A stretch of DNA of 64,000 nucleotides, from the IMG/VR virus record IMGVR_UViG_3300028833_000158, positions 1,274 through 65,273 of that record; one strand, given 5' to 3'. The translations under genes were made by a program, and so were the position numbers. Below, one piece after another: positions 2,644-63,236 of this stretch (position 1 is the stretch's first letter; the number at the start of each line of letters is the position of its first letter). The notes beneath the pieces are model-generated. The model had not been told where the DNA came from. It did no database searches and was given only the letters and a program-made list of their open reading frames with translations. This DNA comes from a virus. Lineage: Duplodnaviria > Caudoviricetes.

Positions 2644-3096
2644 ATGTATATTAAGACTATCGAATACAAAGACTACATGGGTAATCCTAGAAAGGAAGAT
2701 TTCTATTTCAACCTTAGTGAGGCTGAAATAATGGAAATGGAGCTTTCTAAAGAGGGTGGATTTGATCAGTGGATTACCAGGATTGCTAATGCTCAGAATA
2801 CTCCTGAGCTTATCAAACTTTTTAAGAGCCTTATTCTCATGTCTTACGGTGAAAGATCTCTTGACGGAAAGAGTTTCCTCAAGAAAGATCCTGAGACCGG
2901 AAGACCCCTGAGCGAGGCTTTTGAGCAGACAGCTGCATATCCCGTACTTTTTATGCAACTTGCTACCAACACCGAAGCAGCTACGGAATTTATTAATCAG
3001 GTTATACCTGAAGATGCAGCTAATGCTGTAGAAAAAGCTAAAGCTGACGGAAGCTTGGAAGAGGCAACATCTAAGATCTATCCCCTCTCCAAGTAA
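2644..3096 (+). CDS. Tail assembly chaperone
   Basis: Follows the tail tube gene; TIEYKDY.GN.RKEDFYFNLSEAEI..MEL..SYGERS.DG..F.K pattern; RBS AAAGGAG supports ATG 2644. Confidence 0.7.
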   Translation: MYIKTIEYKDYMGNPRKEDFYFNLSEAEIMEMELSKEGGFDQWITRIANAQNTPELIKLFKSLILMSYGERSLDGKSFLKKDPETGRPLSEAFEQTAAYPVLFMQLATNTEAATEFINQVIPEDAANAVEKAKADGSLEEATSKIYPLSK

Positions 3097-32112: not shown

Positions 32113-33002
32113 GTTATAAGGTTGATCCGAATAGAAAGCCGGATAGCCCTCTTGCAAAGTGTGCTATTTGGACTTCTAACTGCACTTTCCCTAGAAATAC
32201 AAAAAAGAAACCGTCTGAATGGACTATTATACCTCATGTAATTGATGGTAATCCTCCAGCGGAAGGCCAGGCTAGAGCTTTCCAAAATCCAAACAGAGGT
32301 GCCTCTGCTCACTACATAATAGATTCTATAGGAACTATTGTGCAGAATGTGCCAGAGTGCTGCAGGGCTTGGACTACGGGAGGCGATCTGAATGTTAATG
32401 GACTTACCGGATCAGAAATAGATCATGAAGCTATAACTATGGAGATTGCCAATGTCACACCTAGACCTTACTGTGGCATGACACCTGAAGCTGTCAACAG
32501 TCTTGTTATGCTTATGGTTGATATTTGCCAGAGAAATGGAATACCGGCTGTAAAATGGTCTGGTAACAAGTTTCTTGCAGGTACGCCTGAGCAGAATGTA
32601 GCAGCTCATAGATGGTTTGCTAAAAAATCATGTCCTGGAGATTTCCTGTATAATAATATGGGTGCCGTATGTGATACAGTTAACATGTATCTTACAAAGG
32701 GTCTTCCTACAAATGGATATTTCATTAACGGACTTGACTATAGCGTAGTATTTGACCCTGTTTACTATGCTAACAAGTATGCAGACCTTGAAGATGCTTT
32801 TGGCTTTGATGAGTTCATGCTTTGGAAGCATTTCTGTGACTTTGGTATGAATGAATTCAGACAGGGATCAGATAACTTTAATCCCCAGGTATACAAAGAC
32901 AATAATCCTGATATTTCAAACTCTCCTTATGGTGAGGATGAAAAAGGATACTATGATCACTTCGTACAGTTTGGACAGTACGAAAATAGAATACACAATT
33001 AA
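32109..33002 (+). CDS. Endolysin: N-acetylmuramoyl-L-alanine amidase with C-terminal repeats
   Basis: IIPH, ASAHY.I, ITMEIAN, AHRWFAKKSCPG (Amidase_2 Zn ligands); two F.P.YY...Y.D...HF..FG..E.R repeats. Confidence 0.9.
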   Translation: MSYKVDPNRKPDSPLAKCAIWTSNCTFPRNTKKKPSEWTIIPHVIDGNPPAEGQARAFQNPNRGASAHYIIDSIGTIVQNVPECCRAWTTGGDLNVNGLTGSEIDHEAITMEIANVTPRPYCGMTPEAVNSLVMLMVDICQRNGIPAVKWSGNKFLAGTPEQNVAAHRWFAKKSCPGDFLYNNMGAVCDTVNMYLTKGLPTNGYFINGLDYSVVFDPVYYANKYADLEDAFGFDEFMLWKHFCDFGMNEFRQGSDNFNPQVYKDNNPDISNSPYGEDEKGYYDHFVQFGQYENRIHN

Positions 33003-33017
33003 AAGGAGAAAACAATT

Positions 33018-33215
33018 ATGTCAGCAAGATTTGAAACAAGAACAAATGCAGAAACTGGTAAGGTTGAGTATCTTGAAAGGGGTGTCAATCTTTCAGTTGG
33101 CGAGCCTTCAGAACTCTTCAACGACGATCCCATGATCAAGGTATCTGATCTTAAGGCTCTTGTAGCAGAAGCATCGTCTTTTGAAGACTTTGTAGCAGCT
33201 ATAGAGGCTCTTTGA
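33018..33215 (+). CDS. Hypothetical protein
   Basis: AAAAGGAG RBS; codon style like the late genes. Confidence 0.65.
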   Translation: MSARFETRTNAETGKVEYLERGVNLSVGEPSELFNDDPMIKVSDLKALVAEASSFEDFVAAIEAL

Positions 33216-33264
33216 TATTTGCTTAAATCCCTTAATTGGGAAGACTTTTACCTCCTATCCTATA

Positions 33265-33330
33265 TGGCTAAAGGGCGGTGGGAATTTCCTGCCGCTCCGA
33301 TGCCAAGGATATTTTACCCTTTTCTTTTTC
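33265..33330 (+). terminator. Terminator at the end of the late/lysis block
   Basis: GGGCGGTGGG/CCTGCCGCTC stem followed by T-rich tract. Confidence 0.6.
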
Positions 33331-33390
33331 GCAAATTTTTGTTATCCTATTATGAAGGGTAATAGTGCCCTGACAAGAAAGGAGAGAATT

Positions 33391-33618
33391 ATGTATACAG
33401 CTATATTATATGTTATAATGATGCTCGCATTAAATATCTACGTGGCAGCACTTGTCGTAATGGATATTATTGAATCCAAAAAGAAGAAGAAATTCACTTG
33501 GTTTGACTACGAGTGGACTTTATCAAAAGATGGAGAAATAATAGTACACTGGGACAAATTGAGACACAGTATAGAATGGTACGAGAGAAATAACTATGAT
33601 ATGGAGAGCCTGATTTAA
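33391..33618 (+). CDS. Small membrane protein
   Basis: AAAGGAG RBS; N-terminal hydrophobic helix followed by KKKKK. Confidence 0.65.
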   Translation: MYTAILYVIMMLALNIYVAALVVMDIIESKKKKKFTWFDYEWTLSKDGEIIVHWDKLRHSIEWYERNNYDMESLI

Positions 33619-33686
33619 GGCTCTTCTTTTTTTTCTTTTTGCAAATTTTTGTTATCCTATTATGAGGAGACAGAAAGGAGAATTAT

Positions 33687-33821
33687 ATGAAATCTATATT
33701 TATAGCAGACGTAAAGAATTGTCCGACATACTTAGTAATTCACACAATAGAAAGTATTGAAGAACTTGGGTGCACTTGGACATGGACTAAAGACGGCAAT
33801 ATTAAGTATTGGTTTAAGTAA
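33687..33821 (+). CDS. 44-aa hypothetical protein (below ORF-track cutoff)
   Basis: MKSIFIADVKNCPTYLVIHTIESIEELGCTWTWTKDGNIKYWFK; motif plus AAAGGAG RBS. Confidence 0.6.
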   Translation: MKSIFIADVKNCPTYLVIHTIESIEELGCTWTWTKDGNIKYWFK

Positions 33822-33893
33822 AACTAATTTTATTGTCTCCTCTTTTCTTTTTGCAAATTTTTGTTGTCCTATTATGGAAAGGAGGTAAATTAT

Positions 33894-34013
33894 ATGAGAC
33901 CAGACGATATTATGTGTATTAGTCTCGTTATAGGATTTATCCTCGGATGGTTTGTAAAGAAACTTGACGTGGATTTATTCCATAACAAGACTGATAACAA
34001 CAACGAGGACTGA
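33894..34013 (+). CDS. 39-aa membrane peptide
   Basis: MRPDDIMCISLVIGFILGWFVKKLDVDLFHNKTDNNNED; AAAGGAGG RBS. Confidence 0.6.
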   Translation: MRPDDIMCISLVIGFILGWFVKKLDVDLFHNKTDNNNED

Positions 34014-34082
34014 TATTTAGTCCTCTTTTCTTTTTCGCAAAATTTTGTTATCCTATTATGAGGAGACAGAAAGGAGAAAATT

Positions 34083-34274
34083 ATGACAGAAAGAAAAGCA
34101 ACTATATCAGTTAACAATATTGATGAGGTTAAAAGAATTGAAAACATTCTTCACAGAACTTTCAGCGAAGGCAACGATTTATATAAAATCGGAGTAGCTG
34201 GAGTATGGAGTAAGTATCAATTATTTATGCAGCAGTATGAACTTAATATGATTATAGAAGAGTTGATGAAATGA
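34083..34274 (+). CDS. Hypothetical protein
   Basis: Motif plus AAAGGAG RBS. Confidence 0.65.
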   Translation: MTERKATISVNNIDEVKRIENILHRTFSEGNDLYKIGVAGVWSKYQLFMQQYELNMIIEELMK

Positions 34275-34380
34275 TTATTAAATTTTATCGTCTCCTCTTT
34301 TCTTTTTTCGCAAAATTTTGTTATCCTATTATGAGAAGTAAAACTTGTAAACTTTTTGATAATGAAAGGAGATAAAAAAC

Positions 34381-34602
34381 ATGAAGAGATTTTTAACGAT
34401 AGTTTTAACGGCAATTGTAACAGCGATAGTTTTAACAGTTGTGGCAATCTTTAAGTTTGGTTCTGTAAATGTACAGAACCATACCGATAGGTATGTAACA
34501 ACATGTAACGATGTAATCGTTGATATGCACGATGAAACCGTCACAGACAGAATTGATTTCAACATAGATGTAAAGCAGGGATTTAACCTGTTTACAAGAT
34601 AA
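34381..34602 (+). CDS. Small protein with N-terminal TM/signal segment
   Basis: MKRFLTIVLTAIVTAIVLTVVAIF; AAAGGAG RBS. Confidence 0.7.
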   Translation: MKRFLTIVLTAIVTAIVLTVVAIFKFGSVNVQNHTDRYVTTCNDVIVDMHDETVTDRIDFNIDVKQGFNLFTR

Positions 34603-34679
34603 ACTACTTCTCAAAGGTAAAGGAAGCTGAATAAGCTTCTTTTCCTTTTATTTTTCGCAATTATATTTTGCCCCTTTAT

Positions 34680-34823
34680 GAAGAAAAGGGCAGTATAAAA
34701 GTACGGCGCAGAGCTTGAAAGGAGGGGAGCTCTTAATGAAAGATGGAAGCTTGTGAAGTGGTTTCCACGGATCAAGAAAAACGTCCAACTCCCTCTCGGT
34801 ATTAAGATTCCGAGCCTTTTCTT
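34680..34823 (+). ncRNA. Candidate structured ncRNA A
   Basis: Follows the promoter motif; no ORF over 20 aa; 5' AAGAAAAGG pairs with 3' CCTTTTCTT; internal GAGC/GCTC and CTCGG/CCGAG hairpins. Confidence 0.4.
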
Positions 34824-34850
34824 TTTTGCAATTTTTTCATATCCCATTAT

Positions 34851-34984
34851 GAGAAAAGGAACTTGGCACCCATAAGATGCCACACGGAGTGGACACGAGA
34901 AACTCTAGGCAGTGCCGCTAGACGGGTAAGGTGAAAATCCCACTACCAAGTATAAGTTGATTCGAAATCAGCCTTTTCTTTTTT
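34851..34984 (+). ncRNA. Candidate structured ncRNA B
   Basis: Follows the promoter motif; no RBS-ORF; nested stems AGAAAAGG/CCTTTTCT, ACTTGG/CCAAGT, GAGT/ACTC; T-loop-like GGTGAAAATCC. Confidence 0.55.
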
Positions 34985-35035
34985 GCAAAATTTTCATCTA
35001 CTTTTATGACGGATATCGTCAGAAAGGAGATAATT

Positions 35036-35323
35036 ATGAATTTTGCAGAAAATTGTATTGAATGCATTAAAGAAGAAGTGAAAGAGGCAGCAAAAGCTAA
35101 AAAAGCTGAGGATAGGCTTGACAGTGTACATGTTATACTGGATTATCGTCACGAAGGATTTATATTCTTCGAGGTAGATAATGGTATGCAGGTAGACTAT
35201 GATAAGCAGGTATTTTTCAGTGAAAAGGAAGCTAGAAAGCTGTTTATGAGATGCTTCTATAGCAATAAAAGATTTGTTGATGCATGCAGATTCATAGCAA
35301 AACACAAAGGACGGATATTTTGA
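35036..35323 (+). CDS. Hypothetical protein
   Basis: Motif, 5' hairpin GACGGATATCGTC, AAAGGAG RBS. Confidence 0.7.
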   Translation: MNFAENCIECIKEEVKEAAKAKKAEDRLDSVHVILDYRHEGFIFFEVDNGMQVDYDKQVFFSEKEARKLFMRCFYSNKRFVDACRFIAKHKGRIF

Positions 35324-35390
35324 TTATATAGAACGGGGCAGAAATGTCCTGTTCTATTTTCTTTTTCGAAATTAATTCATATCTTATTAT

Positions 35391-35520
35391 GAACGCGGCA
35401 GAAGTGAGTCGAGGGTGAGAGTCCCTCTAGCTGAGATGCTATCACATAGGAAATAAGATTGGGCGACTCCCAACTAGGAAATGAACTAGACAAGACCACG
35501 TACTTTTCTTTTTATATTTT
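35391..35520 (+). ncRNA. Candidate structured ncRNA C
   Basis: Follows the promoter motif; GAGGGTGAGAGTCCCTC T-loop-like hairpin and TTGGG/CCCAA hairpin; no RBS-ORF. Confidence 0.45.
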
Positions 35521-35575
35521 GCAAATTATTCATATACTATTACGAGACGGTAACGTCATTCGAAAGGGGATAAAA

Positions 35576-35797
35576 ATGGTAATGAACATGGCAGTAACTA
35601 TCATAGCAATTATGTCACTTGTGGCGACTATATCATTAGTCATCATGGCAGCAGCTTGCTACCGATTAGTATTCGGTTACAAGAAGCTTATGGATGAAAT
35701 GATTGATGTCATAACTGAACAATTGGATGGTAAGATTTCTGACATCATCGACGAAACGATCGAAGACGAACTAGAGAACGAGGATGGAGCCCAGTAA
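35576..35797 (+). CDS. Small membrane protein with acidic tail
   Basis: AAAGGGG RBS; TM helix; stop inside the CAGTAATG hairpin loop. Confidence 0.65.
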   Translation: MVMNMAVTIIAIMSLVATISLVIMAAACYRLVFGYKKLMDEMIDVITEQLDGKISDIIDETIEDELENEDGAQ

Positions 35798-35861
35798 TGG
35801 GCTCTTCCTTTTATATTTTTGAATTTTTTTCACCTTCTATTATAGAAAGGAGGAAACAATT

Positions 35862-36011
35862 ATGAAGAAATTTTTAACGGTATTAGGTTTAATCTTAAAG
35901 CTGCTCGGAAAGATATTCATGACAGGTATGTTTACCTGGTGTGCAATAGAAGAAGTACGAGAGCTTACAGATTGGCTAACAACAGAAGACTTTAATTTAT
36001 CCGACGATTGA
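35862..36011 (+). CDS. 49-aa amphipathic peptide
   Basis: MKKFLTVLGLILKLLGKIFMTGMFTWCAIEEVRELTDWLTTEDFNLSDD; AAAGGAGG RBS. Confidence 0.6.
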   Translation: MKKFLTVLGLILKLLGKIFMTGMFTWCAIEEVRELTDWLTTEDFNLSDD

Positions 36012-36087
36012 GAAATTTTGAGAGGCTTGATATTTAAGCCTCTTGAAATTTTTTCACTTCCTTTAATGGAGGCGGAAAGGAAAATAA

Positions 36088-36207
36088 ATGATCACAGCTA
36101 TTTGTGAAATGGCTTTCGTAGTATTATTGTTTATTGGATTATACACAATACCAATTATACCAATAATATTAGGAGCCGGGTTTCTAATATGGCTAATCAA
36201 ACATTAA
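36088..36207 (+). CDS. 39-aa hydrophobic peptide
   Basis: MITAICEMAFVVLLFIGLYTIPIIPIILGAGFLIWLIKH; GGAAAGG RBS. Confidence 0.55.
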   Translation: MITAICEMAFVVLLFIGLYTIPIIPIILGAGFLIWLIKH

Positions 36208-36311
36208 AAGAAACCGCCAGAAAGATTAGAGAGTTATATTTATAGCTCTCTAATTTTTTCATGTTCTATTATGGAGGCAATAGGGTCTCCATAATAGAAA
36301 GGAGAAATAAA

Positions 36312-36635
36312 ATGAAAGATTTTATTACTAAAGGAACTAATGTTTTTGGACGTACGATTAGTGTTGTACTAACCGCAGTGAACTTGATGTTAGCAATCGC
36401 GTTAAACATCTTATCTTGTAAGAAGCTTAAGAAAGGCTGGAAAATCGTAGGTGTAATAGCATCTAACGGTTTGGTCAGCGTTATCTCATGGCTTGAATCA
36501 AGATATGCAGTTAAGAAAGATTGCGAGAACGAAGGACTGCGTTTTAAACACTATACTTACGTCGACAGAATTAAATGGTTAATGGAAGGAGATGACTATT
36601 TAGAGAATTGTTATGAAGATCCCTATGAGGAGTAA
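36312..36635 (+). CDS. Two-TM membrane protein
   Basis: AAAGGAG RBS; two hydrophobic segments. Confidence 0.7.
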   Translation: MKDFITKGTNVFGRTISVVLTAVNLMLAIALNILSCKKLKKGWKIVGVIASNGLVSVISWLESRYAVKKDCENEGLRFKHYTYVDRIKWLMEGDDYLENCYEDPYEE

Positions 36636-36784
36636 ACTCTATGTAGAGGACTGGATATTTCTGGTCCTCTAAAGTTTTCGCAAATTTTTCATGTCCCTTA
36701 ATGGAAGAGCGGATAGATGCTCTTTTAGTTTTTTCAACTATTATATTTTTTTAAAGTCGGTAAAGAGCCGCGGAAAGGAAAGAA

Positions 36785-37309
36785 ATGACTAACAAGGAAA
36801 GACTGGTAGAAGTGTTTGGTGAAGAGAGCTATAACAATCTTGTAAAGGCAGCGAAGGAATCTAACGCTGTTGATATTTTTGTTTGGCTTCTTGATGAGTT
36901 TCAGGTAAAAACACAGTTGAGTGATGCAGAGATCGAGTATGTCAAGAACGACGAGAAAGTGGTGACTGATATTTTGGCAGAGGAAACCCCTGCAAAGAAG
37001 AGCCGTCGTGGTGGATCACGCAAAGGTAGAGGATATGATCTCAAGTGGTATGTTGATGCAGTGTCAGACTTTTATCTTGGAAAAGCTGCAAGCATTGAGT
37101 TTACTTTGAAAGACGACAGATCTTCCGGAAAGAAGACAAATACCATGGACGGCTTTAAGAGCAGATGGATTGTGGCCGTTAAAAGCCTTGGACTTGAAGA
37201 AGAGGTAATGATTCATAAGTATTATAAAGGAACTTGCAATGAGTGCATTTGTCTTGAGAAACCGAACTTTAAGAACTCAAAGGCAGCTGGCTTTCAGTAT
37301 ATGAGGTGA
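36785..37309 (+). CDS. Hypothetical protein with basic KKSRRGGSRKGRG linker
   Basis: ORF with GGAAAGG RBS. Confidence 0.75.
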   Translation: MTNKERLVEVFGEESYNNLVKAAKESNAVDIFVWLLDEFQVKTQLSDAEIEYVKNDEKVVTDILAEETPAKKSRRGGSRKGRGYDLKWYVDAVSDFYLGKAASIEFTLKDDRSSGKKTNTMDGFKSRWIVAVKSLGLEEEVMIHKYYKGTCNECICLEKPNFKNSKAAGFQYMR

Positions 37310-37316
37310 TGATATT

Positions 37317-37853
37317 ATGAGTAAATCAATATGGATTTTTGAAGAAGATCAAGCCAATATAATTGCAGTGGGAAAGAGCGAATTAAAAAATTTCAATCTT
37401 TACAGCATAGATGAGATATTTATTCCAAAAAAGAAAGTTATTATAAAACATGCAAGAAAAGATTCAGAGTATTTAATAATTCGTATTCATGGAGACAATA
37501 CGAAATATTTAGTTAAATCAAATGATGTGAAAAACGATCACATTATTAGCCATGTTGAATATTTTTGGAATGGTGCTAGAAGTATTGAAGCTGAACCATT
37601 AACTGACGACACTATTGAAATATGTAAAAATAGAGGAATCAAAGTTTTTACTGCAAGACACTGGTGGCCTGGTAATAGTGTTTATGATAAAATTCACACC
37701 ATGTATCATGCTTCTTCTAACATGACAGATGAAGAAATATCGGCATATTGTTTAAAAGAAGAGCAAGATACTCAATTGGAATTAGAAAATTTTCGTAGAA
37801 AAGAAAAAGAAAGAGGAAGTGTCAATAATCATGCTTTGTTTGTAAAAATTTGA
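37317..37853 (+). CDS. Hypothetical protein (AT-rich)
   Basis: ORF with GAGGTG RBS. Confidence 0.65.
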   Translation: MSKSIWIFEEDQANIIAVGKSELKNFNLYSIDEIFIPKKKVIIKHARKDSEYLIIRIHGDNTKYLVKSNDVKNDHIISHVEYFWNGARSIEAEPLTDDTIEICKNRGIKVFTARHWWPGNSVYDKIHTMYHASSNMTDEEISAYCLKEEQDTQLELENFRRKEKERGSVNNHALFVKI

Positions 37854-37872
37854 TTAAAAAGGAGGTAACAGA

Positions 37873-38109
37873 ATGAAAGTCTTGATCATGATTTACATTC
37901 TAATTGGTTTTGTTATTGATGTTATACTTGCTATAGGATTAATCTATTTAAATGAGGGTAAGGTTACACTAGATAAAATAGCTAAGGACTTTAAAAAGAA
38001 GCATCTTAACCTTATCTTGGCGTTATTTTTCATAGAAATGCTGTTTATATGGCCATATGTTATGTTCATATATAAACCAAAAAGTGACATGGAGGTATCT
38101 GATGAGTGA
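37873..38109 (+). CDS. Two-TM membrane protein
   Basis: AAAAGGAGG RBS; hydrophobic. Confidence 0.65.
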   Translation: MKVLIMIYILIGFVIDVILAIGLIYLNEGKVTLDKIAKDFKKKHLNLILALFFIEMLFIWPYVMFIYKPKSDMEVSDE

Positions 38110-38383
38110 TCTTTACAGAGAGAAAGATGGTCAGCTGTCATTCGTAAAGCCAGTCAAAGAAACCGATAAGCGGAGCTTGTATAAGTATACAGGCCCCGTT
38201 TTTCGTTTCGATCAGTGTATTGCCACAGTAACCCTTGAAACCTGGGCCAATACTCCGGCAAAGGCATATAGTAATATGGTCTATCAGGTTAAGCAGAGAC
38301 TTGGCTATCAGCCTACTGCTCAACTAAGAATAAGCAAAAATTTAATTATTAAGGAGGAATTGAAATATGGGAAGACTTGTTAA
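38102..38383 (+). CDS. Conserved hypothetical protein
   Basis: GGAGG RBS; Y.YTGPV.RFD.CI....LETWA.T.AKA.SN..YQ.K pattern. Confidence 0.7.
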   Translation: MSDLYREKDGQLSFVKPVKETDKRSLYKYTGPVFRFDQCIATVTLETWANTPAKAYSNMVYQVKQRLGYQPTAQLRISKNLIIKEELKYGKTC

Positions 38384-38525
38384 TGCAGCACTTATCGTAG
38401 CAGCTATAGGTATAGCTTACGAGTGTGGAAGAGAAAAAGGAGCACGAGATATGTTCTTTAAGTGGACTGAGGCTGTTCTCACAGTTAAAGCCAACGAGGA
38501 GAAGGAGATCGAGAAAGATGAATGA
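38367..38525 (+). CDS. 52-aa hypothetical protein
   Basis: AAGGAGG RBS; MGRLVNAALIVAAIGIAYECG. Confidence 0.55.
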   Translation: MGRLVNAALIVAAIGIAYECGREKGARDMFFKWTEAVLTVKANEEKEIEKDE

Positions 38526-38715
38526 TCTTCGTACAGAGGGGTGCGCCAAATGCGGTGTACCTCTCTTTGAAACCATAGATGGCAGTAATTATAGAAAGAT
38601 ATTTCGTTCGTTTGCCACTAAAAGTGTTAATGATGTTGAGTTGCATTTCTGCATTGATTGCTATAAACAGTTGAATAATAAGTTTGAAGAGGAGAAACAG
38701 GATGAAATGGTGTGA
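38518..38715 (+). CDS. Zinc-finger small protein
   Basis: CAKC...CIDC; AAGGAG RBS. Confidence 0.6.
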   Translation: MNDLRTEGCAKCGVPLFETIDGSNYRKIFRSFATKSVNDVELHFCIDCYKQLNNKFEEEKQDEMV

Positions 38716-39175
38716 CAAGTTTGGTTATCCACAATTAAAAGAAGAAGTTATTAAGCGCGATCCCCAGGCAATTAAAGAAATTCTAGAACTACGTTCTCAG
38801 GATCTTGGTATGCATACTATTGCTAAGACCTTAATTGATAGGCATGTCAGTTATAGAATACCTGAGGGTGATAAAAGGATAGATGATCTGGCTTTCAGTG
38901 AAGGCGGAATTTATGATATTTTATTACCCAAGCCTAAAGACGGATACGACCTCGATGGTTTGAGGAATCTTGCTACTTCTGTTATTGGATGTGCAGTGGA
39001 GGATTATGGATATTCTTTGTCTCATAATATGTCCAACGAGCATCCTGCTTCTGAAAAGTTCTTTACTTCGGGATTGTGTGATTTATATTTAGGTGTGTTT
39101 GATGTTCCTATGACAGGAAAAGATGTAATGAACGAAGTTAAAAATAGGGTAGCTAATGGAGCACGTTGGAGGTAA
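38702..39175 (+). CDS. Hypothetical protein
   Basis: GAGGAG RBS; C-terminal LA..VI..AVEDY...L...SE.FF.S pattern. Confidence 0.7.
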   Translation: MKWCDKFGYPQLKEEVIKRDPQAIKEILELRSQDLGMHTIAKTLIDRHVSYRIPEGDKRIDDLAFSEGGIYDILLPKPKDGYDLDGLRNLATSVIGCAVEDYGYSLSHNMSNEHPASEKFFTSGLCDLYLGVFDVPMTGKDVMNEVKNRVANGARWR

Positions 39176-39178
39176 ATC

Positions 39179-39406
39179 ATGATAGATGCATTATTGATAT
39201 TTGTGCTGTTCTTATCTCTGTTTCTAAACTTTTGCCTAATATCGAGGATCCTTTGCCATGATGCAGAGTTCTATCTGGATATTTCTGACCCAGAAAACGT
39301 AAAGCCGATTCTCAAATTTGACATTGACGAAGTAGAGAATAAGCCGTTCTTTATAGTAAAGGTCATAAAGAAAGAAAATAATTCATGCAATATTAAGGAG
39401 CGGTAA
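39179..39406 (+). CDS. Small membrane-anchored protein
   Basis: GGAGG RBS; N-terminal TM. Confidence 0.6.
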   Translation: MIDALLIFVLFLSLFLNFCLISRILCHDAEFYLDISDPENVKPILKFDIDEVENKPFFIVKVIKKENNSCNIKER

Positions 39407-39431
39407 CGCTATTTTACCATAGGAGGTAACA

Positions 39432-39812
39432 ATGGAAGAAGAACTTGACAAATTAAAGGAGGCTTTGACTAAGTCTACTGAAAAGTATCTTGCAAGCGTT
39501 GAAGAAGGATCAGACTCGAAAGCAGCAGCAGACGAGATGTGCCACATCGCTGAAACCACGGCAAAAATCGAAGATTTAGCTGAACAGAGAAAAACCGAAA
39601 AGGCAAAGATTAATCTGGAAAAGTTAAAGAATGGATTAATGATCGTGGGAGCAGCAATAGGTACATTTGCAATGCGATATGTGCTTCAGAAGGATGATCA
39701 GCATTTCAGACGTAACATGCAGCGAGAAAACTGGCAGAATGAAAGAGACGGAGTTATTATGTCTCCGACTGGAAAGTATTGGAACCAGGAAAGCGTAAAA
39801 AACAGTAAGTAA
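39432..39812 (+). CDS. Hypothetical coiled-coil/TM protein
   Basis: AGGAGG RBS. Confidence 0.7.
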   Translation: MEEELDKLKEALTKSTEKYLASVEEGSDSKAAADEMCHIAETTAKIEDLAEQRKTEKAKINLEKLKNGLMIVGAAIGTFAMRYVLQKDDQHFRRNMQRENWQNERDGVIMSPTGKYWNQESVKNSK

Positions 39813-39858
39813 CGCACCAATTGAGAGATTGATATTTATTATCGGTCTCTCTTTTTCT

Positions 39859-39885
39859 TCGCAATAAAAACACTTCCTTTAATGG
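39859..39885 (+). promoter_or_regulatory. Promoter-like motif copy
   Basis: TCGCAATAAAAACACTTCCTTTAATGG; G39861 to ATG 39882 = 21 nt. Confidence 0.7.
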
Positions 39886-39900
39886 AAGGAGGTGATATGT

Positions 39901-40065
39901 ATGATTTTATTCACAATCATGGCATTAATAATAGTTTTAGTATGTATTGCCATCGTAGCAATAGGCGGTGCCTATCTGTTAATAAGATGGATAATACCAG
40001 TAGGACTATTGATATTGCTGGTATATGTAATAATAAAGATGATACAATCACTATTCAGAAAGTGA
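39901..40065 (+). CDS. 54-aa two-TM membrane peptide (frame differs from ORF track)
   Basis: MILFTIMALIIVLVCIAIVAIGGAYLLIRWIIPVGLLILLVYVIIKMIQSLFRK; GGAGG 8 nt upstream. Confidence 0.65.
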   Translation: MILFTIMALIIVLVCIAIVAIGGAYLLIRWIIPVGLLILLVYVIIKMIQSLFRK

Positions 40066-40119
40066 AACTTTAAGAGGACTGGTATATTCTGGTCCTCTAA
40101 ATTTTTGAAAGGAGACTAA

Positions 40120-40944
40120 ATGAGAATTAAGGATGTTCTACCAATTGCATTAACCGCTATTTCTGTTGTTGGAAGCATAGCAGCAGTTATTATGGCAGCA
40201 AATGAAACACCAAAAGCCGTAGAGATTTTAGACGATAAGAGACTCGAAATAGACCCAACAGGTGAGACTGATATTTCTGTAAAGGAAAAAGCGATCATAT
40301 GCGCAAAGAGCTATTGGAAGACTGAAGTTCTGATTGGTGTATCCATAACTGCAAGCATAGCATCGTGTGTCATTGGTCATAAGAATTATCGTGCGCTTAT
40401 GGCTTCAACTGCTGTTTTATCAACTGCTTATGCTAAGCATAAAGATAAAGTAAAGAAGTTCATAGGTGAGGAAAAGGCTAAACTTATCGATCAGCAAGTA
40501 AAAGAAAGCATGAAACTGGAGAAAGCCAAGAATCCTACAGAGCTTGTGTGGTTCTATGATACAGTTTCAGATACATATTTCCAGATGACTTGGCAAGATT
40601 ATTGGAATGCTAAGATCTGCGCAAACCGTGACATTAATACTTACGGTGATATTTCTCTTGGAAACATGTTTCCTAACATAAAGAACTACATGGAAGATAA
40701 GAACTGTGCAGATTATACTTGGTTCTATGATGACATAGTCGAGAACTATGGCTATCCTTGGCTTGATATTTATGAGGAAGCATGGAATATGCCGTATACC
40801 GAGGGAGATAAGAATAACTATGACAAATCCATTCGTGACGGAAAGCCCACATGGGTTATAAGGTATGGTATTTGGCCTCTTCCTCCAGATGTGGCTAGGG
40901 ATCTTCAATATATTGGCACAGAATCAGATCAGGCAGCAACGTAA
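40120..40944 (+). CDS. DUF6353-like protein, paralog 1
   Basis: Hydrophobic N-terminus, A..ETPKA..IL, K.YWK, S..S...G, C-terminal FYD..S..YF. Confidence 0.65.
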   Translation: MRIKDVLPIALTAISVVGSIAAVIMAANETPKAVEILDDKRLEIDPTGETDISVKEKAIICAKSYWKTEVLIGVSITASIASCVIGHKNYRALMASTAVLSTAYAKHKDKVKKFIGEEKAKLIDQQVKESMKLEKAKNPTELVWFYDTVSDTYFQMTWQDYWNAKICANRDINTYGDISLGNMFPNIKNYMEDKNCADYTWFYDDIVENYGYPWLDIYEEAWNMPYTEGDKNNYDKSIRDGKPTWVIRYGIWPLPPDVARDLQYIGTESDQAAT

Positions 40945-40965
40945 ATATTTCACCTTCTATTATGG
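40940..40965 (+). promoter_or_regulatory. Promoter-like motif copy
   Basis: CGTAAATATTTCACCTTCTATTATGG; G40941 to ATG 40962. Confidence 0.7.
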
Positions 40966-40980
40966 AAAGGAGGTTAAATT

Positions 40981-41145
40981 ATGAAGTTCAAAAGTAAGAT
41001 ATTTTGGGCAGTATTAACTATTATAATGGGCGCTACTGAAATAGCAACAGCGTCTAAAGATATTTATGATGCTGCAAAATTAAAGAAAGCTTTAGAACCT
41101 AAGAAACTTAGCGATCCGGTAGTTGAAAAAGAGGGGGACCAGTAA
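40981..41145 (+). CDS. 54-aa hypothetical protein
   Basis: AAAGGAGG RBS; stop in the CAGTAATG hairpin loop. Confidence 0.6.
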   Translation: MKFKSKIFWAVLTIIMGATEIATASKDIYDAAKLKKALEPKKLSDPVVEKEGDQ

Positions 41146-41182
41146 TGGTCCTCTTCCTTTTATATTTTTGGAAAGGAGTAAA

Positions 41183-41971
41183 ATGAATATTCGTTCAATA
41201 TTTGGAGCCCTGCGTTCAGGGGTTGTCAAACATAGTCCTGAAATATTAACTGCTGTAGGAACGATAGGACTTATAGCTGCTGGTGTTATGGCTGTAAATC
41301 AGACTCCTAAGGCTGTTAAAATTCTGGAAGATTATAGCAATGATGTTAGTGTAGAGGAACCAATAACACCTCAAGAAAAGTTTAAAATGTGCTGGAAGTT
41401 GTATCTTCCTTCAGTATTAATGGCGACAACATCTGTAGCCAGTATTATATTTGCCAGGAGAATAGATTCCAAACGAATGGCAGCATGGGCAGCTGCATAT
41501 CAGATGTCTGAAACGGCTATAAATAGACTCGAGCAAACTATAAAGGATGAGTACGGAGAACGAAAACTCAAGAAGCTCGAGCAGCAGTCTGATATTAAAT
41601 TACTTGAGGAAAATCCTATAAATCCTGACGAGATAGTCAATACTGGAGATGGTGATGATCTATTCTGCGATTATTATTCAGGTGGATATTTTAGATCTAC
41701 TCCGGAAGCTGTAAGAGCTAGATATAATCATTGGATCGCGAAATTACAGAGAAACGATTCAATGAGTGTTAATAGTTGGGTGACAGAGCTGGAACTACGT
41801 CCTATGGGTGATGATGTTGGCGAAGAAATGGGCTTTACATCGTCTATGTATCAGAATAGAGAGCTTGATGACGAGCCGATATTCGAATATGGTCCTGGAT
41901 ATTTAGGAAAGCCGTGTGCAGTTGTCAAACTGTCTTGTAGACCTACCGTAGACTACAAATACAACTATTAA
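41183..41971 (+). CDS. DUF6353-like protein, paralog 2
   Basis: KHSPEILTAVG..G, AVNQTPKAVKIL, WKLY.P, LFCDYYSG.YF.S. Confidence 0.7.
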   Translation: MNIRSIFGALRSGVVKHSPEILTAVGTIGLIAAGVMAVNQTPKAVKILEDYSNDVSVEEPITPQEKFKMCWKLYLPSVLMATTSVASIIFARRIDSKRMAAWAAAYQMSETAINRLEQTIKDEYGERKLKKLEQQSDIKLLEENPINPDEIVNTGDGDDLFCDYYSGGYFRSTPEAVRARYNHWIAKLQRNDSMSVNSWVTELELRPMGDDVGEEMGFTSSMYQNRELDDEPIFEYGPGYLGKPCAVVKLSCRPTVDYKYNY

Positions 41972-41976
41972 TTCAT

Positions 41977-42001
41977 CGCAAAAAATTCATATATTATTAT
42001 G
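41977..42001 (+). promoter_or_regulatory. Promoter-like motif copy
   Basis: CGCAAAAAATTCATATATTATTATG; G41978 to ATG 41999. Confidence 0.7.
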
Positions 42002-42045
42002 AGGCAACTAACAACCAGCTCACATTCACACGAAAGGAGAATAAA

Positions 42046-42357
42046 ATGAGCAAAGAAAAGGAAGTTAAGGAAGTAAAGGAACAGGAAGTTAAGGCAGTTG
42101 AGCCCGAGAAGAAGGAAGAAAAGAAATCTATACGTCAGAAGATGGCAGAGAAGAAGGAAGCTTTTGTAGAGAAGCATCCTAAGGCAGCAAAAAGGATTTC
42201 TACCGTAGGTAAGGTAGGAACTGGAGTTGTGTTAGGTGTTATCGCAAAGTTTGGATTCGACGCAATCACAGACGCGATTTCTGGATCATCAAACTCAGGT
42301 GATGTCATTGACACCACTTATACAGATGTAACTACTGATAATAGCAATAACTCGTAA
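42046..42357 (+). CDS. K/E-rich protein with C-terminal hydrophobic segment
   Basis: AAAGGAG RBS. Confidence 0.7.
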   Translation: MSKEKEVKEVKEQEVKAVEPEKKEEKKSIRQKMAEKKEAFVEKHPKAAKRISTVGKVGTGVVLGVIAKFGFDAITDAISGSSNSGDVIDTTYTDVTTDNSNNS

Positions 42358-42433
42358 AGAGCGTTGTTAGCCTCCATTTAGAGAGATCAGAAATGGTCTC
42401 TCTATTTTATTTTTTCTTTTGAAAGGAAATGCT

Positions 42434-43099
42434 ATGGAAAAGTTACCAAACAACTCAGATTCTGCTAATAATAAGCAGAAACCGTCAATAAATACAAACG
42501 TAAATAAAATTGACGGAATAAGTGCAAGTCACAGACCAACATTCTTGAAAATGCTAAAGACAAGTATATTTCCTGAGAATATGACTGTTATGGATCTTGT
42601 TCAAGATGTTGTAGTTCCGGCTATTAGAGATGGAATGTTTGATATTTTGATGAGTTCTATAGATCATTGGAGAGCTGGTGTCGGAGGCTCTTCCATGATA
42701 AGAACCGGAACTCGTATCAATGGAAATGTTGCAACTAGAATAACATCTGGAACTAACTATAACAGGATTTCTAGAATAAGCCAGAACTACGAGAAACCTC
42801 AGGTAATCGTAACAGCTCCGACATATGATGATATTTTCATAGAAGATGGAGTTGACAAGAATGGCAAATTTATGAGCGGAGCAGTAAGAGCTCAGCTGGT
42901 TATTGCTCAACTTGATGACGATATAGCAAAGTATCAGGTAGCCAGAGTATCCGATTTGTTTAAGTATTGCGGATTGTCACCGTCACCTAACGGATCTGAT
43001 TTCAACTACGGATGGACAAATCTTAGTGAAGCAGGATACAAGCCCTGCAGAGGCGGAGTACGTCTGGTATTACCTGAAGCTATGCAGATAGATGATTGA
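42434..43099 (+). CDS. Conserved hypothetical phage protein
   Basis: LPNNS, DVVVPAI.D...D, A.V.DL....G......D..YGWT.L, L.LP.A..ID. Confidence 0.75.
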   Translation: MEKLPNNSDSANNKQKPSINTNVNKIDGISASHRPTFLKMLKTSIFPENMTVMDLVQDVVVPAIRDGMFDILMSSIDHWRAGVGGSSMIRTGTRINGNVATRITSGTNYNRISRISQNYEKPQVIVTAPTYDDIFIEDGVDKNGKFMSGAVRAQLVIAQLDDDIAKYQVARVSDLFKYCGLSPSPNGSDFNYGWTNLSEAGYKPCRGGVRLVLPEAMQIDD

Positions 43100-59732: not shown

Positions 59733-60264
59733 AGGCCAGCACGCTTTTATGAGTGCGAGCAAATTTCAGTGGATTAATTACACAGATATGAAATTGCTTG
59801 AAACTTATAACAACATGATGGCTGCACAAAGAGGAACTGAGTTACATGCATTTGCAGCTCAGTGTATTAAGCTTAGACAAAAATTAAAAGGCAAAGATAA
59901 TTTAGCAAACTATGTAAATGATGCAGTCGGATTTGGAATGACTCCTGAAGTTGTTTTATATTATTCCGATGTTTGCTTTGGTACTGCCGATGCTATTAAG
60001 TTTGATGAGAAGAAAAAGTTTTTAAGGATTCACGATTTAAAAACTGGTGTCACTAAAGTTCACATGGAACAGCTGGAAGTTTATGCAGCTTTATTTTGTC
60101 TTGAGTATCACATGAAGCCTGGCGATATAGGAATGGAGCTAAGGATATACCAGAATGATGATGTAATGATATTTGAACCTACTGCTGAAAACATAGTTCC
60201 AATTATGGACAAAGCAGTTAGCTTCACAAAACTAATTCATAACAACAATTTAATAGGAGTTTGA
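59704..60264 (+). CDS. PD-(D/E)XK exonuclease (DUF2800/Cas4-like)
   Basis: HAF.SAS...W, GT.LH.FA, FGTADAI, LRIHDLKTG, QL.VYAALF. Confidence 0.8.
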   Translation: MIWNNHSNLEGQHAFMSASKFQWINYTDMKLLETYNNMMAAQRGTELHAFAAQCIKLRQKLKGKDNLANYVNDAVGFGMTPEVVLYYSDVCFGTADAIKFDEKKKFLRIHDLKTGVTKVHMEQLEVYAALFCLEYHMKPGDIGMELRIYQNDDVMIFEPTAENIVPIMDKAVSFTKLIHNNNLIGV

Positions 60265-60266
60265 AA

Positions 60267-63236
60267 ATGAATGAGTATGAAAGTTTCAAAGCTTATGAAG
60301 AGCTTGAAGAGGGTTTATATTTAGAGCATTACGGAACTCCTAGACATTCTGGTAGATATCCTTGGGGCTCGGGAAAAAATCCTTATCAGCACGACAGCGA
60401 AGACTGGTTAGCAAGAGTAGAAAAGCTTCGTTCAAGAAAAAATATGGATGATAAGCAGATTGCTCGAGAAATGGGATGTACGATTAACCAGTTAAGAGCT
60501 TGGGAATCAGTTGCTAAAAACGAAAGAAAGAATGCTCAGATCACTTGGTGTAAGAAACTTGCATCTGAAGGAAAATCAGTTGCAGAGATAGAGCAGATAA
60601 CTGGAATCAAAGACAGAACAGTAAGAAACTATCTTAACAGCAATAGAGATGTTAAACCTTTGCAGGCTCAGGCAACAGCTAAGTTCTTGGAAGAACAGGT
60701 TGATAAGAAAGGTTATATTGATATTGGTAAAGGTGTAGAGAAAGATATTGTAGCAGTTGATGGAACTCTTGGAATTACATCTAACAAGCTTAAAGAAGCT
60801 ATGGAAATAATGAAAAGAGATGGCTATGATATTTACACCAATCTTAAGGTTCCTCAAGCAACTAATCCAAAGAATATGACAACTCGAGTAGTTGCATGTA
60901 AGTTCCCTGAAGGAATGACAACTAACGAGAAATACAAAGAGCTGTATAAAGCAAGAGATAATGGTGATATTCAGTCTGTTGCCGAGTATCATTCAGATGA
61001 TGCTGGTCTTACATGGAATGCTCCTAAACCTCCTGTATCTATTGATTCAAATAGAATAAAAGTTGTTTATGCTGAAGATGGAGGAATTGAGAAAGATGGT
61101 GTCATCGAAATAAGAAGAGGCGTTGCAGACTTAAGTCTTGGTGATTCTCATTATGCTCAGGTTCGTATTGCTGTTGATGGAACTCATTATCTTAAAGGTA
61201 TGGCAGTTTATAGAGATGGCAAAGACATGCCTGATGGAGTTGATATTTTGTTTAACACCAACAAGCATAGTGACAAGAAGATGATCGATGGTGATAATGG
61301 TGTTCTTAAACCAATGAAAGAAGATCCAGCTCATAAAGGAAAGATAGATCAGAGTAATCCATTTGGAGCTGTTATTATGCGTGGTGGACAATCTGATTAT
61401 GAGGATCCTAAAACTGGTGAAGTTAAACAGTCTGCTATAAATAAGATACATGATCAGGGTGATTGGGGAGAATACTCTAAAGATCTTCCTGCTCAGTTCT
61501 TATCTAAACAGAACACAGATCTCATAAAGAAACAGCTTCAGTATTCTATTAATGACATGCGTAATGAGTTCAACGATATTATGGCGATCGATAATCCTAC
61601 GATTCGTAAATATTATTTGGACAAGTTTGCATCAAGTTGTGATTCAAAAGCCGTGCATCTTAAAGCTTCTGCTCTTCCTAGGCAGCAGTATCAGGTTATT
61701 CTTCCTGTTCCGTCACTTAAGGACAATGAGATCTATGCTCCTAATTACAGAGATGGAGAACAAGTAGCGTTGGTAAGGTTTCCTCATGGTGGAACATTTG
61801 AGATACCTATATTGACTGTTAATAATAAGAATCCAGAAGCTAAGAAGTTACTTGGCACTGATCCTTCTGATGCTGTCTGCATAAATAAGAATATTGCAGA
61901 TCGATTGTCAGGTGCAGACTTTGATGGAGATACAGCAATTGTCATACCAACAGGCAGAGGAAACAAGGTTAAGATAACTAACTCTGATCCTCTTAAAGGT
62001 CTTGTTGGTTATGATGCGAAAGAAGAATATGCAACTCATGTCGAAGAGAAGAATGGTAAGAAAGTATATGTCAATAAGAATGGCGTTGTAATAAAACCCA
62101 TGGATGAGAGGACAACTCAGATAGAAATGGGTAAAGTTACAAATCTTATTACAGATATGACTGTTGCTGGTGCTCCTCTTGATGACATTGCTAAAGCTGT
62201 TAGGCATTCTCAAACTGTAATCGATGCTAAGAAACACCATCTTGACTATAAACAATCAGAGATAGACAATGACATAGCATCATTAAAGGTTATGTATCAG
62301 AGAAGAATAGATGAGAATGGTGATCTTCACATTGGTGGTGCATCTACACTGTTGTCTAGAGCTAAGCATGAGAAAGCATATCCTGAAACCAAAGGTCAAG
62401 TACATTACAACCAGATAGGAAAGCCTTGGTATAATCCGGACCTTCCTGAAGGAGCATTAATACTTAAAGAATCTGGTAGAACATTCGAAGAGACTAAGCC
62501 TGTCAAGGATGCTGATGGTAATGTAATGTACTATGAGGATACTGGTAAGCCTATAAAGGCTAAGACTGGTAAGGTTAAGCTAGCCACAGTAGATAGACCC
62601 GAGATGGCTATGACTAATGATGCTCGTACCCTGTTGTCTGCTATAAGGAGCGAGCCGGAGCTACTATATGCGGACTATGCAAACCAACTTAAAGCATTAG
62701 CAAATGAGTCACGAAAGACAATCATGTACACAAAAGGTTTGCAGTACAATCCTTCAGCTAGGAAAGAGTATGCAGAAGAAGTAGCGTCCCTTAAGGAGAA
62801 GCTAGACAATGCCTATAGGCAGAAGCCTAAGGAGGCTAGAGCACAGAACATAGCCCTGGGTATAATCAATGAGAAGATTAAGGCAGACCCTAACCTTAGT
62901 AAGAAGGATGAGAAGAAGATTAGACAGTTAGCTATAGAAACAGCAAGGTCACAGGTGGGTGTTGATCGAAAAGATAGGGAAATCACACTCACAGATAGGG
63001 AATGGGCAGCAATACAAGCTGGTGCAATTAGTGATCATATACTTTCTGAGATACTAAACAATACAAATCCTGACAGTTTAAGAGAAAGAGCAACTCCTTC
63101 TAACAACAGAGCGTTGTCTGAATCTCAAATGGCAAGGATTCGTAACATGCATAATGGTTACTATACTATTGCAGAGATTGCTGATGCAATGGGTGTTTCT
63201 ACATCAACTGTTTCTAGAGTTTTGAAAGGAGCATAA
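60267..63236 (+). CDS. Putative single-subunit two-barrel (DFDGD) RNA polymerase with N- and C-terminal HTH domains
   Basis: QVR....YLKG (61158-61199), VRFPH (61776), LSGADFDGD (61911-61931); HTH-like segments at both ends; N-terminal YLEHYG tag. ATG 60267 fits the RBS better than TTG 60261. Confidence 0.75.
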   Translation: MNEYESFKAYEELEEGLYLEHYGTPRHSGRYPWGSGKNPYQHDSEDWLARVEKLRSRKNMDDKQIAREMGCTINQLRAWESVAKNERKNAQITWCKKLASEGKSVAEIEQITGIKDRTVRNYLNSNRDVKPLQAQATAKFLEEQVDKKGYIDIGKGVEKDIVAVDGTLGITSNKLKEAMEIMKRDGYDIYTNLKVPQATNPKNMTTRVVACKFPEGMTTNEKYKELYKARDNGDIQSVAEYHSDDAGLTWNAPKPPVSIDSNRIKVVYAEDGGIEKDGVIEIRRGVADLSLGDSHYAQVRIAVDGTHYLKGMAVYRDGKDMPDGVDILFNTNKHSDKKMIDGDNGVLKPMKEDPAHKGKIDQSNPFGAVIMRGGQSDYEDPKTGEVKQSAINKIHDQGDWGEYSKDLPAQFLSKQNTDLIKKQLQYSINDMRNEFNDIMAIDNPTIRKYYLDKFASSCDSKAVHLKASALPRQQYQVILPVPSLKDNEIYAPNYRDGEQVALVRFPHGGTFEIPILTVNNKNPEAKKLLGTDPSDAVCINKNIADRLSGADFDGDTAIVIPTGRGNKVKITNSDPLKGLVGYDAKEEYATHVEEKNGKKVYVNKNGVVIKPMDERTTQIEMGKVTNLITDMTVAGAPLDDIAKAVRHSQTVIDAKKHHLDYKQSEIDNDIASLKVMYQRRIDENGDLHIGGASTLLSRAKHEKAYPETKGQVHYNQIGKPWYNPDLPEGALILKESGRTFEETKPVKDADGNVMYYEDTGKPIKAKTGKVKLATVDRPEMAMTNDARTLLSAIRSEPELLYADYANQLKALANESRKTIMYTKGLQYNPSARKEYAEEVASLKEKLDNAYRQKPKEARAQNIALGIINEKIKADPNLSKKDEKKIRQLAIETARSQVGVDRKDREITLTDREWAAIQAGAISDHILSEILNNTNPDSLRERATPSNNRALSESQMARIRNMHNGYYTIAEIADAMGVSTSTVSRVLKGA

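Follow-up and report, generated by a model that had tools for sequence, protein, structure and literature searches.

Pairing between the 5' untranslated region (UTR) and the 3' UTR of a single mRNA is already known in principle; so far, its bacterial examples amount to a few single cases (hbs, icaR, RNAIII, and hok), and a 2021 review called the wider applicability of such pairing open (PMC7821165). The closest precedent by analogy for the arrangement described here, closer than hok, is the Bacillus subtilis hbs mRNA, whose 5' UTR forms a 14-bp pairing of approximately -19 kcal/mol with sequence just upstream of the terminator; this interaction restricts cutting by RNase Y and influences both routes of decay, and compensatory mutants proved the pairing in vivo (Braun, Durand and Condon 2017, PMC5737220). 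Pairing of the 3' UTR with the 5' UTR has also been described for icaR of Staphylococcus aureus (Ruiz de los Mozos 2013; reviewed in PMC7821165). Here we analyze a 64,000-nt stretch of phage DNA (positions 1,274 to 65,273 of IMG/VR record IMGVR_UViG_3300028833_000158; hereafter, the window), which carries an array of small, individually promoted transcription units, and report that in several of these the first nucleotides of the predicted transcript pair with its own 3' UTR, closing the whole gene within a stem.

The window represents 64 kb of a phage genome of 65.3 kb, present as a single contig, which originates from sheep gut or rumen samples and has all of its genes on the + strand. A position weight matrix (PWM) scan of the window found approximately 23 copies of a 26-nt promoter motif (consensus TCGCAAATTTTTCATATCCTATTATG), all on the + strand; the minus strand yielded a single weak match (score 8.3). 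These copies precede small genes at 33.3-42.0, 49.6-51, and 58-59.3 kb, and each unit is laid out as the phage-type promoter, a leader, a Shine-Dalgarno sequence (SD), a small open reading frame (ORF) or a noncoding RNA (ncRNA), and a terminator. Most units end with a hairpin and the T-run TTTTCTTTTT, which leads into the next promoter; because the T-run is missing where no gene ends upstream, it is part of the terminator and not of the promoter. For comparison we used related arrays served by the same promoter and obtained through TerL- and protein-based searches, designated L002/L003, L004, L008, L092 (the L007/L163 contig), L122, L158, L160, and L162, to which the short contigs L153-L157 were added. 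An exact promoter-pattern scan of IMG/VR returned chiefly chance single matches, only L092 and L122 being useful. FP_oengus (L165, NC_047916.1), a cultured phage of Faecalibacterium prausnitzii whose DNA polymerase is 55% identical, carries 12 copies of a related promoter (CGCGAAAAAWNCAGNNNNCTTTATG), whose final G lies, for example, at 4931, 5202, and 8270.

The original prediction was that four of the small transcripts have complementary ends, with each 5' arm starting at the promoter. All four arm pairs lie exactly where they had been placed, with the closing G of the 26-nt motif serving as the first base of every 5' arm. Two forms of closure can be distinguished: in type 1, the 3' arm adjoins the T-run without a local hairpin at a suitable position, and in type 2, the 3' arm is found at the stop codon or shortly past it, with a distinct terminator hairpin downstream. 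The four units comprise the following features:

33639-33664, + strand: promoter of unit 33664, TTGCAAATTTTTGTTATCCTATTATG, PWM score 33.4; the presumed start is its final G
33664-33672, + strand: 5' arm of unit 33664 (type 1), GAGGAGACA
33687-33821, + strand: 44-aa ORF of unit 33664, with homologues in L008 and L092
33834-33852, + strand: 3' arm TGTCTCCTC (33834-33842) of unit 33664, then the T-run TTTTCTTTTT; no local hairpin
34035-34060 and 34060-34067, + strand: promoter and 5' arm (GAGGAGAC) of unit 34060 (type 1)
34083-34274, + strand: 63-aa ORF of unit 34060
34290-34308, + strand: 3' arm GTCTCCTC (34290-34297) of unit 34060, adjoining the T-run
34308-34333, + strand: promoter of unit 34333 (type 2), from the motif scan
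34333-34352, + strand: bipartite 5' arm of unit 34333, GAGAAGTA-AAA-CTTGTAAAC
34381-34602, + strand: 73-aa membrane-type ORF of unit 34333, with a 37% identical homologue in L008 unit 7104
34590-34612, + strand: 3' arm of unit 34333, GTTTACAAG-ATAAAC-TACTTCTC, with the stop codon TAA (34600-34602) in an internal loop
34619-34655, + strand: separate terminator hairpin and T-run of unit 34333
41976-42001, + strand: promoter of unit 42001 (type 2), from the motif scan
42001-42021, + strand: tripartite 5' arm of unit 42001, GAGGC..CTAACAAC..GCTC
42046-42357, + strand: 103-aa ORF of unit 42001, whose homologues P0002-P0005 were examined with their flanks
42359-42374, + strand: 3' arm of unit 42001, GAGCGTTGTTAGCCTC, that is, GAGC-GTTGTTAG-CCTC, 2 nt past the stop codon
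42379-42414, + strand: terminator hairpin and T-run of unit 42001, the hairpin being invariant among homologues

When whole transcripts were folded, the closing helix was present in the minimum-energy structure with a pairing probability of approximately 1 for units 33664, 34333, and 42001; for unit 34060 this probability was approximately 0.5-0.9. The helix of unit 34333 comprises 17 bp (-19.9 kcal/mol) and that of unit 42001 comprises 16 bp (-20.4 kcal/mol). Type 2 units share both the geometry and a similar energy with hbs, which is likewise a short monocistronic mRNA in a Firmicute context. The pairings of units 34333 and 42001 exceed the roughly 14 nt that characterize the hbs type, and in these two units, in L008 7104 and 10336, in L158 686, and in FP_oengus gp11 the 3' arm comes between the stop codon and a distinct terminator hairpin. 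There are also differences: the 5' segment of hbs follows two leader hairpins, whereas the phage 5' arm consists of the very first nucleotides; the phage 3' arm may overlap the stop codon; and the phage device recurs in many unrelated genes of one clade. The icaR pairing resembles the phage helices in that its partners within one mRNA are a pyrimidine-rich 3' UTR motif and a purine-rich 5' region, but it covers the SD itself and triggers decay by RNase III, whereas the phage arm lies upstream of the SD and runs from +1.

We compared the own-pair duplexes with all other combinations of ends in a 23x23 matrix of duplex energies (the first 24 nt of every unit against the last 75 nt of every unit). 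The unit's own pair ranked first for 33664, 34333 (z of about -8), and 42001, and that of 34060 ranked second, behind only the identical arm of 33664. Across the entire 64 kb, the best duplex site for the 34333 leader was its own 3' arm, and the own sites of 42001 and 33664 fell narrowly below the top four among approximately 4,200 windows. Extending the comparison to 67 non-redundant units from nine related sequences, we found the own pair at rank 1 in nine (one expected) and among the top three in 13 (three expected); the summed own-pair energy exceeded that of all permutations (z = -4.6, 0 of 20,000). Long-range pairing of this kind is present in about a quarter of the tiny units of this phage and its relatives. 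In FP_oengus, three of 10 units rank their own pair first: gp11 (type 2), gp12 (type 1-like, its 3' arm being followed by the T-run with no local hairpin), and gp19, which stands behind a DUF6353 gene at the same position as window unit 42001. An automatic tabulation of T-runs and local hairpins was too noisy and was left unused.

Compensatory changes, which the original prediction had proposed to look for in relatives, are present and give strong support to a stem that closes the whole gene between the 5' end and the 3' UTR. Homologues of the 103-aa protein of unit 42001 are 53-95% identical, and in all four distinct sequences of this family the first nucleotides after the promoter pair with bases just past the stop codon. 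The helices (-15 to -20 kcal/mol) have the same architecture but differ in sequence, and five or more positions carry changes in both arms; the downstream terminator hairpin is invariant. Because MAFFT/RNAalifold alignments of the whole units misaligned the leaders, and so missed the closing helix, the arms were compared sequence by sequence with RNAduplex:

Window: GAGGC..CUAACAAC..GCUC
L154: AGG.CUAAUUAACUA
L156: as L154, plus one G.U
L158: GGA..CUAAUUAAUC..UAGCA

Similarly, unit 34333 and L008 7104, whose proteins are 37% identical, form bipartite helices of 17 and 18 bp that are unrelated in sequence, yet in both the last three codons make the inner helix, leaving the stop codon within the internal loop. 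Additional independent type 2 units are L008 10336 (17 bp) and L158 686 (9-10 bp). Among type 1 units, arms of the form GAGGAG+N / N'+CTCCTC occur in five unrelated ORF families, and their variable extensions are matched (ACA/TGT, GCA/TGC, ATGT/ACAT, and AGCA/TGCT):

Window, two units: GAGGAGACA / UGUCUCCUC
L004: GAGGAGGCA / UGCCUCCUC
L002: GAAGAGGAGAUGU / ACAUCUCCUCUUC
L008 7889: GAGGAGAGCA / UGCUCUCCUC
L008 7685: homologous to window 33664
L162, a further such arm pair: GGAGAGCA / UGCUCUCC

These data bear on the proposal that the arms are inverted repeats acting at the DNA level in mobile, integron-like cassettes, or else reflect chance or compositional complementarity. The array does look modular, cassette content varies among relatives, and in a DNA run of the probable source sample contigs join position 34137 to 36293, skipping 2155 bp. 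However, the arms lie on either side of a gene instead of at a junction, complementarity between the 3' arm of a unit and the 5' arm of its successor (the relationship expected of integron attC-type sites) is absent, and covariation that tolerates G.U pairs, together with strand-specific placement, argues for an RNA. Chance as the source of the pairing is excluded by the permutation and whole-window scans. We therefore regard this pair of explanations as highly improbable. The same DNA run contains another joint, a back-jump from 34066 to 34023, suggesting that strain variants in the 34023-36293 region gained or lost cassettes through recombination between repeated promoter/terminator modules. 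An inverted repeat spanning the promoter near 33354 (TTACCCTT / AAGGGTAA) was considered and rejected, as it is not conserved in L092, where the downstream half is altered within a covarying local 5' hairpin and the upstream half is unchanged.

The units assigned to each form of closure are as follows:

Type 1 (helices of 8-13 bp): window 33664 and 34060; L002 6456; L004 6849; L008 7685 and 7889; L162 222; FP_oengus gp12
Type 2 (helices of 16-18 bp with bulges): window 34333 and 42001, with homologues; L008 7104 and 10336; L158 686; FP_oengus gp11 and gp19

The position of the type 1 helix raises the question of whether its primary role is that of a split intrinsic terminator, in which the 5' end of the transcript supplies the upstream half of the hairpin, the gene forms the loop, and pairing at the U-tract frees the polymerase. 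The stem adjoins the U-tract in the window (33834-33842 and 34290-34297, before TTTTCTTTTT), L004, L002, and FP_oengus gp12; in 33664, 34060, L004 6849, L002 6456, and gp12 the same T-run follows the 3' arm within 0-1 nt and no local hairpin is placed to serve it. Elsewhere TTTTCTTTTT also follows local terminator hairpins, whose 3' halves (AGTCCTC and the T-run) resemble the long-range 3' arms, and L160 unit 3937 appears intermediate, its terminator 3' half being able to pair either locally or with the 5' end. Moreover, FP_oengus carries a tRNA-like gene as a mini-unit of its own (2910-3015), with an odd anticodon loop (ARAGORN, 2935-3006) and an acceptor stem whose 3' strand, CUCUUUC, adjoins the T-run. 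Both intrinsic terminators and this acceptor stem resemble type 1 helices in placing a G+C-containing stem directly before a U-tract; the phage loop, by contrast, is an entire gene. In work by Yarnell and Roberts dating from 1999, oligonucleotides annealed in trans are said to be able to replace the upstream hairpin arm. Nevertheless, the arms are 161-330 nt apart, an unprecedented loop far outside that of known terminators, L008 7685 and 7889 have no good T-run after the arm, and L004 6849 has a competing, weak, AU-rich local hairpin. Type 2 units, which have a terminator of their own, are left unexplained. We consider termination as the primary role of type 1 helices to be possible but doubtful. 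More tentatively still, type 1 units might be true split terminators in which the polymerase is released only when the 5' end folds back, so that occupation of the 5' arm (GAGGAG) by a 30S subunit, an RNA, or a protein would lead to read-through into the next unit; if true, this would constitute a new, 5'-end-sensing form of attenuation within a phage gene array.

The transcripts probably start at the final G of the promoter, as judged from the positions of the leader hairpins, from the FP_oengus tRNA-like gene, which begins 1 nt past the promoter G, and, weakly, from RNA contigs. The RNA data consist of assembled contigs of two sheep-rumen metatranscriptome runs from one study, and such contigs cannot define transcript ends. 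Those matching the units were:

42015-42372: depth 67, against approximately 4 downstream and 2 upstream
34347-34570
39400/39407-39790/39817
35029-35312: depth of approximately 290
33385-33588

The units are therefore found as discrete pieces in RNA libraries. The contigs begin 3-31 nt past the predicted starts and end short of the terminator hairpins; those for 39397, 34333, and 42001 begin 3-14 nt past the predicted G and stay within their units, which is weak evidence for the start. Contig depth was zero at 33668-34335 and 34670-35003, which hold the type 1 units and the ORF-less units (ncRNA A and B, described below); because these RNAs are shorter than 250 nt, the gap proves nothing.

These contigs are also relevant to the idea that the arms form processing stalks, that is, duplex sites at which RNase III or a related nuclease would excise the mini-mRNAs from read-through transcripts, as in rRNA maturation and the early mRNAs of T7 and SP82. 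Type 2 helices, with 16-18 bp and bulges, might suit such a nuclease, RNase III stems having a mostly unbroken duplex of some 20 bp or more, and at least one hairpin is read through: an RNA contig at 36215-36619 (depth 73) crosses the hairpin at 36220-36259 and the promoter at 36273 into the next ORF, which indicates either a leaky hairpin or a wrong promoter call at 36273. In addition, both ends of the 42001 contig (42015 and 42372) lie inside the arms, but they do not fit the 2-nt 3' stagger of RNase III, as far as contig ends can be taken for transcript ends. Type 1 helices are short for this enzyme, and a processing site would not need a 5' arm that begins exactly at the last base of the promoter. 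We give this explanation little credence.

The leaders as a group point to a different role. Detailed reading of 13 long-range units placed the start of the helix at +1 to +5 of the presumed transcript in each. Eight of the 24 leaders in the window open with a local hairpin in which pairing begins at +1 to +3, and nine have an SD within the first four nucleotides (+1 to +4); the six leaders with neither a hairpin nor an immediate SD are exactly the six with a long-range partner. Only the leader of 35391 fits none of the three classes clearly. Several of the local 5' hairpins covary in relatives. Further, in two syntenic units encoding weakly homologous proteins, window 39397 has a local hairpin where L008 10336 has a long-range helix, indicating that the two devices appear interchangeable. 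Mutual exclusivity and interchangeability together suggest that all three serve one purpose, occupation of the 5' terminus.

Stem-loops at the 5' terminus and ribosome binding close to it stabilize mRNAs against 5'-end-dependent decay, as exemplified by ompA, aprE, ermC, and the STAB-SD of cryIIIA. In those stabilizers, as in the phage leaders, the first nucleotides are paired or ribosome-bound, at the position taken by the long-range arms in units that have no other device; the difference is that the partner is adjacent in the known cases and 160-370 nt away, in the 3' UTR, in the phage. We hold with moderate confidence that the helices are real and selected, that they close small transcripts and probably keep the 5' terminus double-stranded, and that those of type 1 probably double as the terminator stem. 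Within this clade, each transcript would have its first nucleotides occupied in one of three interchangeable ways: by a local hairpin, by a 30S subunit bound at an SD within the first four nucleotides, or by the 3' UTR of the same RNA. In a Firmicute host, a paired 5' terminus would impede the decay that depends on the 5' end and involves RppH, RNase J1, and RNase Y, and the closing helix would also tie down the 3' UTR, as in hbs. In type 1 units, because the 3' arm adjoins the T-run and no local hairpin is properly placed, the same helix would probably also supply the stem of the intrinsic terminator. The analysis shows the arms, their location at +1 to +5, the covariation, the mutual exclusivity with other 5' elements, and the occurrence of units in RNA libraries; the start site, the nucleases involved, and the effects on stability and termination are what we infer from these patterns. 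Overall, among the three functions named in the original prediction (stability, translation control, and long-range termination), the comparative evidence favors 5'-end protection and stability, with a terminator role plausible just for units whose 3' arm adjoins a T-run.

Several observations weigh against this reading. Purine-rich leaders and pyrimidine-rich terminator tails yield generic complementarity, as in unit 33876, although the cross-pair controls take this background into account. In L160, a CTCCTC element with a T-run has no 5' partner within 2.9 kb, and the L092 homologue of 33664 retains just 6 bp, shifted to +22. The abundant 42001 contig starts at 42015, within the 5' arm, with adapter sequence immediately before it; this is compatible with either end loss in the library or a processed 5' end, and were 42015 the genuine 5' end, the mature RNA would lack most of the helix. 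In type 2 units, protection would be intermittent, since a terminating ribosome must melt the helix. Finally, a Firmicute host, and with it the set of RNases, is indicated only by strong SD sequences and by relatives that infect Faecalibacterium and Lactococcus.

The original prediction had likened the pairing to that of hok, in which 5'-3' end pairing stabilizes or gates the mRNA of a type I toxin. The comparison with hok fbi holds as an analogy, in that the two ends of a small-protein mRNA pair, but not further: no antisense RNA gene or promoter was found (the sole minus-strand motif match being the weak one noted above), the units have no mok-like overlapping frame, and their products are not consistently toxin-like. 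Both features tested for membership among hok/Sok-type type I toxin-antitoxin systems were absent, and such membership has no support. A broader version of this idea, modeled on hok/fbi or icaR, is that translation is gated: the closed form would be inert or targeted for decay, opening or 3' processing would activate it, and the proteins would be toxic or tightly dosed. The type 1 helix does reach the first bases of the SD region (the predicted fold pairs +1 to +13), CTCCTC in the 3' arm looks like an anti-SD, some of the products are small membrane proteins, and icaR and hok provide precedents. In 34333 and 42001, however, the SD is not locked, lying 12-20 nt past the 5' arm and outside the closing helix; neither 33664 nor 34060 encodes a hydrophobic product; and units without an ORF close in the same way. 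We consider gating unlikely.

The two ORF-less units, for which end pairing had also been proposed, are:

34680-34836, + strand: ncRNA A; its 5' AAGAAAAGG (34681-34689) pairs with the terminator U-tract CCTTTTCTT (34815-34823)
34851-34992, + strand: ncRNA B; its 5' AGAAAAGG (34852-34859) pairs with CCTTTTCT (34972-34979)

Here the complementarity is real, but it joins an A-rich 5' end to the terminator's own U-tract, and although 6-9 bp are kept in relatives, there is no informative compensatory change. ncRNA A is 77-85% conserved in three relatives (L092, L008, and L002; alignment A1) and is probably noncoding, as its sole ATG reads ATA in L002. It contains an internal hairpin that covaries (GAGCU/AGCUC, GCGCU/AGCGC, and GUGGU/ACCAC) around an invariant SD-like loop, UGAAAGGAGGGG, and 3' of this hairpin an invariant segment, CAACUCCC, that could form a pseudoknot or mimic an anti-SD. 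Two other stretches may encode small RNAs. The region between the end of an ORF near 33215 and the first strong promoter (33215-33330) is 83% conserved in L004, holds a degenerate promoter-like end (CCTCCTATCCTATATGG) and an AAAGGG...CCCTTT pairing with a T-run, and may be another small closed RNA. Behind a good promoter, the 153-nt unit at 35391-35544 is much better conserved than its neighbors (90% nucleotide identity to L002 6953-7084) and opens without an evident SD or ORF; it may represent a third small RNA.

At 36702-36727, immediately 3' of promoter 36703 and at the start of a 2.7-kb operon, a hairpin with a T-run (AAGAGC..GCTCTT TTAGTTTTTT) looks like a terminator or attenuator. The homologous promoters of L158 (1162), L004 (7597), and L162 (3995) are followed by equivalent hairpins of different sequence, and RNA contig depth is low across the operon.

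Because 13 nt separate its -35-like and -10-like parts, the 26-nt motif is not a sigma-A promoter, and that reading was ruled out; a scan with the sigma consensus gave matches at background level (45 sigma-70-like matches found against 37 expected). A TTCAAAATG repeat in more distant TerL relatives proved to be a translation-start context and not a promoter. Besides a siphovirus-type structural module (portal, protease-capsid, a 2890-aa tape measure, and TerL) and a primase-polymerase, the window encodes a 991-aa protein (60261-63236) with helix-turn-helix (HTH) domains at both ends, which are sigma-region-4-like in Pfam. This protein belongs to PHROG 4291, annotated 'RNA-dependent RNA polymerase', i.e., YonO-like, and has 250 phage homologues (in Arthrobacter, Gordonia, Streptomyces, Lactococcus, and Faecalibacterium phages) that are often labeled merely as HTH proteins; a sequence search of the PDB gave no match. 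This protein is a candidate for reading the non-sigma-A promoter.

Approximately nine arrays were available for the comparison. A nucleotide search of a phage collection with 33000-37000 gave no match, nor did searches of IMG/VR with two small proteins; a homologue search with the 73-aa protein returned only itself, its single known homologue being that of L008, and a metagenome scan with this protein pair found no match. Rfam covariance models gave no match at E<=1 in 32500-43000. Literature searches found no account of the FP_oengus promoter, of these promoters or closures, or of a terminator that uses the 5' end of its transcript as the upstream arm. What is new is the apparently systematic, covarying use of 5'/3' pairing precisely at the 5' terminus, by many genes, unrelated to one another, of a single phage clade, along with its apparent equivalence to other 5' stabilizers and the apparent variant that replaces the terminator stem. 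The type 1 form, if functional, would widen the definition of an intrinsic terminator, and compact promoter-leader-terminator modules of this kind would serve as insulated expression parts. With the cultured phage FP_oengus, experiments are within reach. By reusing such pairing in unrelated genes, this clade of gut and rumen Firmicute phages provides a natural comparative test bed for how the state of the 5' end relates to the fate of an mRNA in Gram-positive hosts.

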